Notes: a model not told the origin generated them from the letters alone. DNA of 49,200 nucleotides from an uncultured Anaerolineaceae bacterium (GCA_964393345.1 CAYMTJ010000004.1:7503-56702); one strand, 5' to 3'. Counted from the first letter of the stretch, positions 43,236-47,870 are shown. Made by a program: numbers and translations.

Positions 43236-45869
43236 CTACTCGTGACCGCTGGTCAGCAGCGCCGTCCCGGCGCCGTTCCCGTGGTCATGACCGTGCCCGT
43301 GGGCGTGTCCGTGTCCGTTCCCGTTGGTGGACCCGGCCGGGATCCCGGCGATCGTCGCGGGGAGCATCGGGAGCATCCGGGCCGGGTCGAGCGGTCGGCC
43401 CTGGGCGGCGGCCGCCTCGGCCCAGCCGCGCTCGCGGCGGATGTACGTGACCTCGGTCTCCCGGTCGATGGCCGCGAGCGCCAGCAGGTCGATCATCGGC
43501 TCCTCGCGGCTGGTGTGCGAGAGCTCGAAATCGCCGCCGTCGCGCAGCGCGTCGTATGGGCACGCATCCACGCAGATCCCGCACAGGATGCAGCGGCTCT
43601 CGTCGACCTCGTACTTCTCGAGCACGCGCGGCTTGGGCATCAGGGCGCCCGTCGGGCAGGTCTCGGCGCAGCGACCGCAGGACACGCACGGGGTGTCGTT
43701 CAGGCTCATGTCGAGCGGCGTCGTGACCAGCGTGTCGAAGCCGATGCGCATGAAGTCATAGCAGGCGGCGCCGACCACCTCGGAGCAGACCTGGGCGCAC
43801 CGGCCGCAGTCGATGCAGCGCGATGGTTCGCGCAGGATGAACGCGTGCGAGTCGTCGCGGATGTAGTCGTGGTTGACGCCCGTGAAGCGGTTCTCCGTCA
43901 CGCTCCGATAGCCGGCCCCGGCGTGGTACTGCGGCTCGAGGGTCGGCAGGGTCGTCCCGTACTCGATGCCGAGCCGCCGCAGGTCGCAGAACCCGATCGC
44001 CTCGCAGGTGCACTGGAGGCAGCGGGTCGATTCGGCGACGGCGGCCTCGCGGGTGTACGGGAGCTCGTACTCGATGTAATCGTGGTTGCGCTCCTCGGCC
44101 TCCATGGCCTGCATCCGGTAGCGCGGCTCCTTGACCTCGGCCGTGAACGGCACGATCGAGAGGAACTCCGGTTGCGGCTCGGCCAGCGTCTGGCGAGTCC
44201 GGATGGCCGTCAGGTCCAGGCCCTGCAGATAGGCATCCACCGCGTACGCCGCACGGCGCCCCTCGGCGATCGCCTGGACGACCGTCGCGGCACCGATGCG
44301 GACATCGCCGGTCCCGAAGACGCCGGGCCGCCCCGTCTCGAACGTGACGGCGTCCGCCTTGAGCCGCCACTGCTTGGTCTTCTCGGGGCCTTCGTTGCCG
44401 GGCTGTTCGAGCCAGTCCAGCTCCGGCCCCTGGCCGATGGCGAGGAGGACGCGATCGCACGGGATGACGAACTCCGTGCCGGGCGCCGGCTCCGGGCGTC
44501 GACGGCCCGACGCATCGGGTTCGCCGAGCTGCATCCGGATGAATTCGACGCCGGTGACGTTGCCGGCCTCGTCCACGATGACCCGAACGGGCCCCGCCTG
44601 GAAGATGGCGGTGACGCCCTCCTCGATGGCCTCGTGGACTTCGTTCGATGCCGGCATGTCCTTCATGTCGCGGCGGTACACGAGCGTCACCTCGCTGGCT
44701 CCCTGACGGACCGACGTCCGCGAGCAGTCCATCGAGGTGAAGCCGCCGCCGATGACCACGACCCGCTTGCCGACGTGATCGGGGTAGGGCAGTCCCAGGG
44801 TCGCCGTGCGCAGGTACTCGAGCCCGTCGAGGACCTCGGCGGCGTCCTCGTTGGGGATGCCCAGCTTGTTCGTGTCGTAGCAGCCGATGGCCAGGACGAC
44901 GGCGTCGTAACCCTGGTTGGTCAGATCGTCGAGCGTGAAGTCCCGCCCGAGCCCGGCGTTGCAGACCATCTTGCCGCCCAGCCGGGTCACGGACTCGTAT
45001 TCGGCCTCGAGGACCTCCACCTTGGGCAATCGGTACTGCGGGATCCCGTAGCGGAGCATCCCGCCCGGCGCCGGGTCACGCTCGAAGACGGTCACCTCGT
45101 GACCGGACAGCAGCAGGTAGAACGCGGCGGCCATGCCGGCCGGCCCGGAGCCGATGACCGCGGCGCGGCGGCCGGTCGCCGGCTGGCGCTCGTAGGGGAT
45201 CGGCGGATCCACGCCCTCGTCGAGCATCGCCTTGAGGACCTGGTCGCCGGCATAGCGGTGGCTGTCGCGGATCGCGATCGCCTCGTCCACCTCGTCGCGC
45301 CGGCAGTGCTCCTCGCACGGGGCGGGGCAGACGCGGCCGAGGACCGAGGGGAACGGGATCGTGCGCTTGAAGATCCGTGCGCTCTCCCGCCAGTTCGCTT
45401 CCGCGTTGGCCTTGAGGAACCCGGGGATGTCGATGTGACTGGGGCACTTGTTCTGGCACGGCGGCAGGCAGTAGGCGTTGTGGTCGCTGAAGATCAGCTC
45501 GAGGTTCGTGCGCCGCAGCCGACGGATCTCCTCGGTCTGCGTCTGGACCTTCATGTCGGGCTCGCACGTCCGCGAGCAGCTGATCGGCGGGTGCTCCTCA
45601 CCCTCGACCTCGACCACGCACATCCGGCAGGCCCCGAACCCGGGCAACTTGGGTTCGTAGCAGAGCGTCGGGATCTCGATGCCGTTGTCCCGGCAGACCT
45701 CGAGGATCGTCTGGCCCTCGAAGCCCTCGATGACGCGCCCGTCGACCTCGATGCGGATGCGCGGCGTCGACTGCGGTCGCTGCGGCGAGCGCGTCTCGAG
45801 GAGCCGGTCGGCGAGCGAATCCGGCTCCGGGAGGGGGCGGCTGTCGGGGCGCGTCAGAAGGTCGGCCAT
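43236..45869 (-). CDS. Fe-S flavoprotein: NuoG-type 2Fe-2S + GltD/SfrB-like FAD/NAD(P)H domain + 2x[4Fe-4S] + C-terminal half of NuoI + His-rich tail
   Basis: IPTLC..GACRMCVVE..SC, PCQNKCP, GRVCPAPCE, GSGPAG, GGGFTSMD, YRR, RCLQCTC, CIDCGRCAQVC, CVSCGRCAETCP, then YEVDESRCILCGICVDACPYDAL..DFEL. Confidence 0.85.
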   Translation of the reverse strand: MADLLTRPDSRPLPEPDSLADRLLETRSPQRPQSTPRIRIEVDGRVIEGFEGQTILEVCRDNGIEIPTLCYEPKLPGFGACRMCVVEVEGEEHPPISCSRTCEPDMKVQTQTEEIRRLRRTNLELIFSDHNAYCLPPCQNKCPSHIDIPGFLKANAEANWRESARIFKRTIPFPSVLGRVCPAPCEEHCRRDEVDEAIAIRDSHRYAGDQVLKAMLDEGVDPPIPYERQPATGRRAAVIGSGPAGMAAAFYLLLSGHEVTVFERDPAPGGMLRYGIPQYRLPKVEVLEAEYESVTRLGGKMVCNAGLGRDFTLDDLTNQGYDAVVLAIGCYDTNKLGIPNEDAAEVLDGLEYLRTATLGLPYPDHVGKRVVVIGGGFTSMDCSRTSVRQGASEVTLVYRRDMKDMPASNEVHEAIEEGVTAIFQAGPVRVIVDEAGNVTGVEFIRMQLGEPDASGRRRPEPAPGTEFVIPCDRVLLAIGQGPELDWLEQPGNEGPEKTKQWRLKADAVTFETGRPGVFGTGDVRIGAATVVQAIAEGRRAAYAVDAYLQGLDLTAIRTRQTLAEPQPEFLSIVPFTAEVKEPRYRMQAMEAEERNHDYIEYELPYTREAAVAESTRCLQCTCEAIGFCDLRRLGIEYGTTLPTLEPQYHAGAGYRSVTENRFTGVNHDYIRDDSHAFILREPSRCIDCGRCAQVCSEVVGAACYDFMRIGFDTLVTTPLDMSLNDTPCVSCGRCAETCPTGALMPKPRVLEKYEVDESRCILCGICVDACPYDALRDGGDFELSHTSREEPMIDLLALAAIDRETEVTYIRRERGWAEAAAAQGRPLDPARMLPMLPATIAGIPAGSTNGNGHGHAHGHGHDHGNGAGTALLTSGHE

Positions 45870-45876
45870 GGTCGCC

Positions 45877-47202: not shown

Positions 47203-47870
47203 GACGGTCGACCCGCGTCGCGTGCGGTGCCGAGCGCCGTACCCAGCGCGCTCAGGTAGGCCGCCTCGGGGGGCCGATGGGCCGCGACCGCCTTCGCCTG
47301 CGTCGTCGCGGTCGCGGGTTCGAAGCGCAGGTGGGCGTAGTAGCTCGCGGTCCCGTAGATCATCGCGTACCACGCGCCCGTGAGCTGGCTGATCCGCTTG
47401 AGGGCAGCCACGGGCAGGTACCCGTAGGCAGTCTGCGTCGACTCGAGGATGGCCAGCATCCGAGCCGGGTCGTGATCGTGTTCCTCGAGGATGGCGTCGA
47501 CGGCTGCGAGGTCGATGGCCTGGAACGGCTGATACGCGGGATCCGGGACCGGCCGGCCGGACCGCCGCAGCGCGGATTCCTCCCGTCGCTCGCCGTACGT
47601 CTCCGACGCGCCCCAGTGGATGTGGTACCGGCCGCGGGTGTCCATGCCGCCCATGTCGATGCACTCGATCGGGCAGGCCTGGGCGCACTGGAAGCAGGTC
47701 TCGCACTTGAGCGTGCCCCACTCGTCGTAGAGGAGCTGGAGCCGGCCGCGGAACTTGTGCGGCACGTCGAGACGGACTTCGGGGTACTTGATGGTCACCT
47801 TGGGTTCGAAGAACCGGCGCAGCGTCAGGCTCATGCCCTTCACGATGCCGAGCCCGGGGATGAAGCTCAT
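47199..47870 (-). CDS. Fusion of the NuoI N-terminal half (one CxxCxxCxxxCP) with the NuoE N-terminal helical domain
   Basis: GMSLTLRRFFEPKVTIKYPE...FRGR..L..CETCFQCAQACP, then LAILESTQTAYGYLP...IYGTASYY..LRFEP. No second ferredoxin motif and no NuoE 2Fe-2S cysteines. Confidence 0.85.
   Translation of the reverse strand: MSFIPGLGIVKGMSLTLRRFFEPKVTIKYPEVRLDVPHKFRGRLQLLYDEWGTLKCETCFQCAQACPIECIDMGGMDTRGRYHIHWGASETYGERREESALRRSGRPVPDPAYQPFQAIDLAAVDAILEEHDHDPARMLAILESTQTAYGYLPVAALKRISQLTGAWYAMIYGTASYYAHLRFEPATATTQAKAVAAHRPPEAAYLSALGTALGTARDAGRPS

Follow-up and report, generated by a model that had tools for sequence, protein, structure and literature searches.

The window analysed here is a 49,200-nt stretch of the genome assembly GCA_964393345.1 (CAYMTJ010000004.1:7503-56702), and it contains most of the only complex I (nuo) operon found in this Candidatus Limnocylindria (Chloroflexota) genome. 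The position normally held by nuoI, between nuoH and nuoJ, is taken by a cassette of three genes. The first of them, coding for a 223-aa protein, begins with the N-terminal half of NuoI, and the last, coding for an 877-aa protein, ends with the C-terminal half. We consider it likely that NuoI of this organism is made from these two polypeptides, each fused to a subunit of an Stn-like, transhydrogenase-like flavoprotein module, and that a two-flavin NAD(P)H-oxidizing head is in this way bolted onto the pump.

The cassette between nuoH and nuoJ

The whole operon lies on the minus strand in the order nuoA-B-C-D-H, 223-aa gene, NuoF-like gene, 877-aa gene, nuoJ-K-L-M-N. The stop codon of nuoH is followed after 1 nt by the start of the 223-aa gene (47199..47870), whose own stop overlaps the GTG start of the NuoF-like gene (45877..47202) as GTGA; the GTG at 47202 is the likely start. 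Spacing is 7 nt between the NuoF-like and 877-aa genes (the latter at 43236..45869) and 10 nt between the 877-aa stop and nuoJ. In the original prediction the usual H-I-J order was read as H, I(N)::E', F-like, G/GltD::I(C), J. Open reading frames and domain matches confirm this layout; the two cysteine motifs lie at exactly the predicted positions, and every feature was found where it had been placed, on the minus strand.

The 223-aa protein is a fusion of the NuoI N-half, a linker, and a NuoE/StnA-type N-domain, as judged from its open reading frame and from Pfam, NCBIfam, and PDB matches. The NCBIfam model for NuoI (TIGR01971) matched residues 12-76 over model positions 1-64 with 50.7 bits, nine NuoI equivalogs likewise matched N-terminal residues only, and TYKY/Nqo9/NuoI chains in the PDB aligned to residues 9-74 (e.g., 7ar7_I at 2e-10). 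In a search of the whole genome with the NuoI model, the corresponding match (47640..47837, minus strand; 51.4 bits, E 1.5e-13) covered positions 1-65, which include the N-terminal TxxYPE..RGR segment and the first cluster motif. A single CxxCxxCxxxCP motif is present (C56-P67, 47670-47705), and its residues C56, C59, C62, C66, and P67 were invariant in 10/10 sequences (alignment A1). It is followed by a NuoE/StnA/HydC-type N-terminal helical domain (residues ~117-190; 47301..47522, minus strand), supported by PDB matches and by PF01257 (NuoE-type thioredoxin-like ferredoxin), which aligned to residues 125-187 over only positions 2-64 of the 145-position profile. The thioredoxin-like [2Fe-2S] part of NuoE/StnA is absent. 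The best PDB chains for the E-like domain were 9bov_C (1.3e-12) and StnA 8oh5_A (1.2e-10), ahead of the complex I 24-kDa subunits. It had been predicted that the gene after nuoH starts as NuoI, has one cysteine motif, and then changes into the N-domain of NuoE; the TIGR01971 and PF01257 matches bear this out. Among relatives, which we group into families f1 to f4, a longer NuoE-like tail was found in f2, f4, and one genus of f1 (A1 columns ~215-300; loci L029, L020, and L021-L023). It starts with CxCxxC, but the N1a-site Cys pair that should come later is missing; in the genus of the window the tail is wholly gone. The series looks as though the [2Fe-2S] domain had decayed step by step.

The 877-aa protein is StnC-like over most of its length (open reading frame, Pfam, NCBIfam, and PDB matches). 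It starts with a NuoG/HoxU-type [2Fe-2S] domain (residues 37-112; 45534..45761, minus strand; PF13510, E 1.9e-20), which is followed by a GltD/NfnB-type domain (residues 134-549; 44223..45470; PF14691, PF07992, TIGR01318, and PRK12814) consisting of a 2x[4Fe-4S] N-terminal part and FAD and NAD(P)H Rossmann folds. PRK12814 covers residues 38-698. A HydA/NuoG-type ferredoxin-like domain with the motifs C685-C695 and C728-C738 comes next (residues 678-743; 43641..43838; PF22117, Fer4_Nqo3). The C-terminal end of the protein matched NuoI model positions 71-116, with the second cluster motif and the FEL...R tail (residues 748-793; 43491..43628; 44.2 bits, E 2.7e-11), and it is here, directly before nuoJ, that the missing second half of NuoI had been predicted. 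The last CxxCxxCxxxCP spans C760-P771 (43557-43592), within a 4Fe-4S motif matched at residues 753-776. In alignment A2 the [2Fe-2S] ligands C70, C81, C84, and C98, the GxGPAG and YRR motifs of the GltD domain, and the C685-C695 and C728-C738 motifs were invariant; C760, C763, C766, C770, P771, F781, E782, and R788 were invariant in 9/9 sequences. The NuoG model (TIGR01973) matched residues 40-138 only, with 92 bits against a cut-off of 470, and no molybdopterin domain was detected in Pfam and NCBIfam scans of the protein. Beyond the NuoI C-half the protein has a His/Gly-rich tail (GHGHAHGHGHDHG-like, ~43278-43316), which some relatives share (L027, L029) and others lack.

The gene between the two fusions codes for a flavoprotein with the NuoF/StnB core (441/442 aa), containing an FMN/NADH site and an N3-type cluster site. 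Pfam recognizes PF01512 and PF10589 only. The PDB search and alignment A3 were run on 45880-47205, one codon longer, and the PDB matches comprise only the core of the known chains (9bov_B residues 113-526, HydB 159-574, and StnB 112-527). TIGR01959 scored 328 bits, against a cut-off of 558.65. The GRGGxGFP and GEE motifs were invariant in A3, as were three cysteines (C350, C356, and C396). The N3-type motif near residues 350-356 reads CGKTIPC, with Thr at the second Cys of CxxCxxC; this residue is Thr in families f1 and f2, Ala in f4, and Cys in f3. By analogy with other Fe-S proteins we would speculate that such a site may hold a [3Fe-4S] cluster or use a non-Cys ligand. Elsewhere in the genome, a 4.3-kb contig (C97) carries a fused NuoE-NuoF gene with a full [2Fe-2S] domain in its NuoE part (L153:761-2638, minus strand), 40% identical to the NuoF-like protein of the operon. 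After it comes a NuoG/HoxU/FdhA-like N-terminus that runs off the end of the contig (L153:3-839, minus strand). The C97 NuoE-NuoF is probably part of a soluble NAD-linked dehydrogenase.

Six matches at E <= 0.01 were obtained in the whole-genome search with TIGR01971 (curated cut-off 113.05 bits), and all of them fell short of the cut-off. The best pair was complementary, one match covering positions 1-65 in the 223-aa gene and the other positions 71-116 in the 877-aa gene, at its 3' end. The break point lies in the loop that joins the NuoI motifs, and the halves are ~4 kb apart. Ten canonical NuoI sequences of other Chloroflexota were compared with eight N-terminal 112-residue pieces of 223-aa homologues and eight C-terminal pieces of 877-aa homologues, entered as fragments. 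The N-terminal pieces aligned from the N-terminus of canonical NuoI via ..VT.QYPE...RFRGR through the first motif, and the C-terminal pieces aligned to the YEIN..RCIFCGxCxxxCP..A....YEL...R block, so that the alignment of the 877-aa C-terminus to NuoI on which the original prediction depended was obtained both with the model and with canonical sequences. NuoI-specific segments outside the cysteine motifs are represented as well (model positions 1-40 and 100-116). The two motifs that NuoI carries in one polypeptide are here distributed one each to the 223-aa and 877-aa proteins, and the halves, which flank the cassette between nuoH and nuoJ, are the only NuoI found in the genome.

Conservation of the split and search for an intact NuoI

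The relatives of this organism belong to Candidatus Limnocylindrales/Limnocylindria (Chloroflexota); all are uncultured and known from metagenomes. An intact nuoI elsewhere would speak against the prediction. None was found over the cut-off by the NuoI model search in this genome (82% complete), and 198 of 201 class genomes were likewise without one. The remaining three (G110, G100, and G061) have an intact NuoI besides the split pair, which could represent a second canonical complex I or contamination. All but five of the 201 genomes gave two or more sub-threshold matches. In a sample of the phylum, NuoI exceeded the cut-off in 84 of 121 genomes; these were 84 of the 109 outside the class, the 12 class members all being below.

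The survey of related genomes showed the same split to be general. The 223-aa fusion was detected in 40/41 relatives (23/24 in the genus and 16/16 in a second family) and in 192/201 class genomes, most matches spanning both parts (residues 4-187). All eight cluster cysteines and both prolines were invariant across four families (A1, n = 10; A2, n = 9). In a protein collection, 2950 clusters with the fusion were found among 3752 candidates (E <= 1e-5), and 56 representatives at 50% identity had E < 1e-30. The names given to the 223-aa protein by its sources are 'ferredoxin', 'hypothetical protein', and 'subunit E', so that automated pipelines would score such genomes as being without NuoI. The collection also includes 72 longer proteins, nearly all from single-member clusters and mostly from ENA assemblies, in which NuoH and the 223-aa fusion (IE) or IE and the F-like protein share one frame. 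No restored intact NuoI was found among them; the probable explanation is run-through or an indel where gene joints overlap or are 1 nt wide.

The order H, IE, F, G, J, K was observed in seven loci of three families (f1, f2, and f4). Family f3 differs: there the cassette comes after nuoB and nuoD, and neither H nor J is nearby (L025/L137). The f3 genome G086 has a second locus with nuoA-C-H-J-K-L-M-N (L152, G086:C2:42000-61999), where H is directly before J, and has only one NuoB and one NuoH. The f3 loci are thus complementary, leaving the split pair as the sole NuoI candidate.

It might be supposed that the layout results from misassembly, from a frameshifted nuoI, or from a decaying operon, given that the assembly is fragmented (107 contigs) and incomplete and that a run of 100 N lies just past the window end. 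We find this scarcely credible, since contigs assembled from runs of three other studies bridge every joint (J/877, 877/F, F/223, and 223/H), covering 30/30 bins with zero indels, since the arrangement shared by the 192 class genomes is seen in hundreds of independent assemblies, some with megabase contigs, and since the reading frames are intact and catalytic residues invariant. Misassembly, which would have invalidated the prediction, is thus not supported; on each test open to sequence data, the reading offered in the original prediction was supported. In environmental reads, at least 0.6 of the sampled words of the 5.1-kb stretch were present in 14 DNA runs from five studies, one run possibly being from the source sample. 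The read search places Limnocylindria in freshwater, biofilm, and drinking-water metagenomes. Six metatranscriptome runs contained only 0.06-0.07 of the sampled words. Short contigs from one metatranscriptome (X15) were 92-99% alike over 21/30 bins; they come from relatives, and DNA carry-over is possible.

Probable ancestry of the cassette, proposed electron path, and alternative explanations

All three cassette proteins find their best PDB matches in chains of the Stn/Nfn-ABC/HydABC type (9bov_A/B/C, 8oh5_C/B/A, and 9n5u_A/B/C). For the 877-aa protein, residues 38-771 aligned to residues 4-700 of 9bov_A (5.1e-162); StnC (8oh5_C, 3.5e-142) and NfnA (9n5u_A) were also matched, and the alignment stops at about residue 700 of the 9bov_A and StnC chains, which are 1178 and 1172 residues long. 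The matches point to the Stn/Nfn-ABC (Bfu) family as the origin of the cassette, which would since have been trimmed of its bifurcation domains. A canonical NuoEFG identity was rejected, as all three proteins match Bfu-type chains better. The original prediction described an EFG-type cassette inserted into nuoI. A cassette does lie between the NuoI halves, but it appears to be Stn/Bfu-derived and not canonical EFG, and insertion into nuoI is only one possible history, because the three-gene unit is found next to nuoB or nuoB-nuoD as well, at a distance from nuoH and nuoJ. One locus in another genome (G299, L126) looks like a soluble Bfu-type cluster and has no nuo genes.

In the text of the published Stn study, StnAB is described as the bifurcating module, with ferredoxin reduced at StnB's C-terminal end; the FAD of StnC is a non-bifurcating NADPH site from which electrons pass via FAD-C7-C6-C5-C4-C3 to StnAB, a branch through C1 and C2 of the C-terminal domain is a dead end, and residues 683-1172 of StnC make up a formate-dehydrogenase-like C-terminal domain (PMC10482914). 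The 877-aa protein keeps the StnC order of [2Fe-2S], GltD, and ferredoxin domains, and both the FAD/NADPH and the FMN/NADH motifs are retained in the cassette. The formate-dehydrogenase-like domain is absent, and the NuoI C-half is found in its place. Also absent are the N-terminal [2Fe-2S] and C-terminal 2x[4Fe-4S] domains of StnB from the NuoF-like protein and, in the genus of the window, the [2Fe-2S] domain of StnA. Unlike Stn, the cassette genes are inside a nuo operon and have no evident ferredoxin-reducing branch. Because the StnB and StnA cluster domains are missing, the module is probably not electron-bifurcating; it would be a plain NAD(P)H:quinone oxidoreductase, perhaps with a transhydrogenase side activity.

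Features that the cassette shares with canonical NuoEFG are the flavoprotein for NADH and FMN, a docking domain of the NuoE type, and, upstream of NuoI, a [2Fe-2S] N-terminus of the NuoG type. It differs in having neither the N1a cluster domain nor the molybdopterin-like domain of NuoG and in having an extra GltD/FAD domain. In canonical complex I the C-terminal domain of NuoG docks the N-module, whereas attachment here would be by fusion to the NuoI halves, and the genes are located between nuoH and nuoJ, where those of canonical NuoEFG lie between nuoD and nuoH. The halves themselves share with NuoI/Nqo9/TYKY (NDUFS8) the VT.(Q/K)YPE...RGR segment, the two CxxCxxCxxxCP motifs, the YEL...R tail, and the position between nuoH and nuoJ; in contrast to that family they are on two polypeptides, each fused to another protein, and are below the family cut-off. 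The nuoA-B-C-D-H-(I)-J-K-L-M-N backbone, with no E, F, or G genes between D and H, resembles that of the 11-subunit enzymes (cyanobacterial NDH-1 and Nuo11, found in many anaerobes). For most Nuo11 enzymes the donor module is not established, or the donor is ferredoxin. Unlike in those enzymes, the input module is encoded inside this operon and marked by its fusion to NuoI. The nearest published statement found concerns mbx-like operons of Thermotoga and proteobacteria, where a gltD-related flavoprotein substitutes for NuoI (Degli Esposti 2015, PMC4758237). Common to both is a NAD(P)H flavoprotein of the GltD type where NuoI would stand in a complex I-like gene cluster; the text of that paper presents a substitution, with no split NuoI described and no NuoE/NuoF partner. 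No published split NuoI or layout of this kind was found among open-access papers and preprints, where supplements and figures (e.g., Figure 2 and S2 of PMC4758237) might bear on the point.

In the 2x[4Fe-4S] ferredoxin fold, each cluster is bound by three cysteines of one motif and a single cysteine of the other. By homology to StnC and 9bov_A, C685-C695 would pair with C728-C738 in the 877-aa protein; we take it that the two homologous motifs of the StnC-type ferredoxin domain pair with each other. This would leave C760-C770 without an internal partner, and the 223-aa protein has a single motif, so the simplest reading is that the two orphan motifs pair across the chains. From this cysteine bookkeeping and from homology, we infer that N6a and N6b are ligated across two polypeptides. 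A complex prediction that combined the first 112 residues of the 223-aa protein (A1) with residues 745-835 of the 877-aa chain (A2) and a pair of 4Fe-4S clusters, made without controls, gave scores of 0.29 and 0.27 against a mark of 0.32, which weigh neither for nor against this. In the mechanism we propose, the two halves would form one Nqo9-like 2x[4Fe-4S] fold at its usual place on NuoB/D/H, each cluster receiving three cysteines from one chain and one from the other. The 223-aa chain would bring the NuoF-docking domain and the 877-aa chain an Fe-S chain together with the GltD domain, and the two-flavin input module would thereby be covalently tethered to the pump without the C-terminal domain of NuoG. 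A common Fe-S chain would receive electrons from NADH at FMN and from NADPH at FAD. They would exit via the ferredoxin domain, which is followed ~10 residues later by the NuoI C-half, and pass on through N6a/N6b and N2 to quinone; the exit branch here would correspond to the dead-end branch of Stn.

A related arrangement was found in two of 151 sampled Chloroflexota (G237, L127:6933-8813, and G410, L129:1483-3366, both minus strand), where full-length matches show the NuoI N-half, GltD, and the NuoI C-half joined in one 627/628-aa protein. The gene for this chimera sits between nuoH and nuoJ in a nuo operon that is otherwise of the 11-gene type. As in the split pair, the insertion is in the same loop and at the same operon position, and GltD is followed by RCLxC and a CP(F/Y)DAL-type second motif. 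Unlike the split pair, the chimera is one polypeptide, without NuoE/NuoF-like partners, the [2Fe-2S] domain, or the HydA-type ferredoxin domain. Its only two CxxCxxCxxxCP motifs flank the GltD insert and must therefore pair across it. The chimera shows that the inter-motif loop of NuoI accepts a large insertion, in this case a predicted flavoprotein.

Several observations weigh against a NuoI rebuilt from two chains and carrying the input module. Neither half passes the NuoI cut-off, and their summed score of 95.6 bits is also below it; the genome is only 82% complete; the N3 cluster site is atypical in this genome, with its second Cys replaced; and the genes on contig C97 may represent a second input module or N-module. 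The specificity for NADH or NADPH is read from motifs, and we infer both the binding of the halves to each other and the position of the module on the membrane arm. The cysteine pairing might also be drawn differently. The C728-C738 and C760-C770 motifs are 21 residues apart, a spacing typical of clostridial ferredoxins, and Pfam dicluster models take 728-774 as one unit (Fer4_7, Fer4_9, and Fer4_10 match residues 721-774 as a whole), so that from sequence alone the two motifs could form an intramolecular ferredoxin, the 223-aa motif pairing with C685-C695 or binding no cluster. The MAFFT alignment of the chimera set (A4), which put the first motif of canonical NuoI on C728-C738, agrees with such a pairing. 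We regard it as very improbable. Residues 38-771 are collinear with StnC-type chains, in which both homologous motifs belong to the HydA/NuoG-type ferredoxin domain, and the NuoI model prefers the split, with 44.2 bits for positions 71-116 against 24 bits on the stretch upstream. The chimera, moreover, has no second motif on the same side of GltD to pair with.

The cassette, with or without a NuoB paralogue, could instead make up an enzyme of its own, a soluble or peripheral NAD(P)H oxidoreductase resembling Stn, with the halves as its inter-subunit ferredoxin. Its genes would then merely sit in the nuo operon, and the pump would be without a true NuoI or would have an unrecognised one. Such an enzyme is suggested by Chloroflexota that also have canonical complex I, in which the unit stands alone among unrelated genes: families f25 and f10 have a nuoB'/IE/F/G cluster in addition to a canonical operon with intact NuoI. 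In G330, a closed genome of 5.6 Mb, the genes on either side of this cluster (L134:5419-10678) code for isocitrate dehydrogenase and a GH1 glycosidase, and similar clusters are found in G257 (L135, with two tandem copies of the 877-aa-type gene), G234 (L136), and G279 (L121). That all three proteins are nearest to soluble Bfu-type enzymes is consistent with it as well. We nevertheless think it unlikely, as it would leave 198/201 class genomes with a complex I lacking any NuoI. The N-half keeps the NuoI-specific N-terminal segment, beyond the ferredoxin motif, and in f3 nuoB and nuoD stand beside the cassette while the other locus has H before J, G086 holding sole copies of NuoB and NuoH. Even G330 has a second nuoA-C-D-H set without nuoB, nuoI, or nuoJ-N (L151, G330:C1:584000-603999) and a second nuoJ far away (G330:C1:4764531-4765001); this scattered set may be the partner of the stand-alone cluster, since it would need exactly the B and I supplied there. 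A tree of 15 NuoB sequences from operons, clusters, and canonical copies was an open polytomy with long branches.

Surrounding genes and wider implications

The cassette is preceded by nuoH (47872..49197, minus strand; 441 aa, PF00146) and followed by nuoJ (42632..43225, minus strand; PF00499) and by the open reading frames of nuoK (42303-42635), nuoL (40330-42306), nuoM (38675-40327), and nuoN (37197-38678), all on the minus strand. By tblastn, nuoH, J, K, L, M, and N are each single-copy in the genome. Upstream of the nuoH end of the window, the contig continues with nuoD, nuoC, nuoB, and nuoA, beyond which a Methyltransf_28 gene is located. No gene for NuoE, NuoF, or NuoG was found between nuoD and nuoH, where a run of 100 N separates the nuoD 3' end from the nuoH start (contig C4 56703-56802, corresponding to window positions 49201-49300). 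The run hides the C-terminus of NuoD and the true start of nuoH, and a scaffold gap is possible. An apparent open frame joining D and H is an artefact of this run, and a NuoD-NuoH fusion was rejected. The Methyltransf_28 (PF02636) gene adjoins peripheral-arm genes in two arrangements, beside nuoA here (L007:3913-5205, minus strand) and beside the cassette in family f3 (L025:7967-9112, plus strand; L024:3359-4681, minus strand). To this family belongs NDUFAF7/MidA, the enzyme that methylates the homologue of NuoD while complex I is being assembled.

It is quite possible, if still somewhat doubtful, that Chloroflexota hold an unrecognised type of complex I, with a two-polypeptide NuoI, cross-chain N6a and N6b, and a covalently wired FMN and FAD head, acting as a proton-pumping NADPH/NADH:quinone oxidoreductase. 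It would be the sole complex I of Limnocylindria, an abundant class of soil and freshwater, and elsewhere an isoenzyme encoded by scattered loci (A-C-D-H, B-IE-F-G, and J, among others). If true, this would be a natural example of a soluble bifurcating-enzyme module recruited as a respiratory N-module.

Such a recruitment would touch on two long-standing questions, the origin of the complex I input module and the donor of the 11-subunit enzymes without NuoEFG. With the input module identified by its fusion to the connecting subunit, the donor question becomes directly testable in one lineage. If the halves do rebuild NuoI, it would be a respiratory Fe-S subunit in which both cubane clusters are each ligated by two polypeptides, and the inter-motif loop would be a tolerated insertion point, as the single-chain GltD insertion elsewhere supports. 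The presence of GltD/FAD beside NuoF/FMN suggests that NADPH may enter the respiratory chain through a proton pump, which would alter models of redox balance for Limnocylindria.

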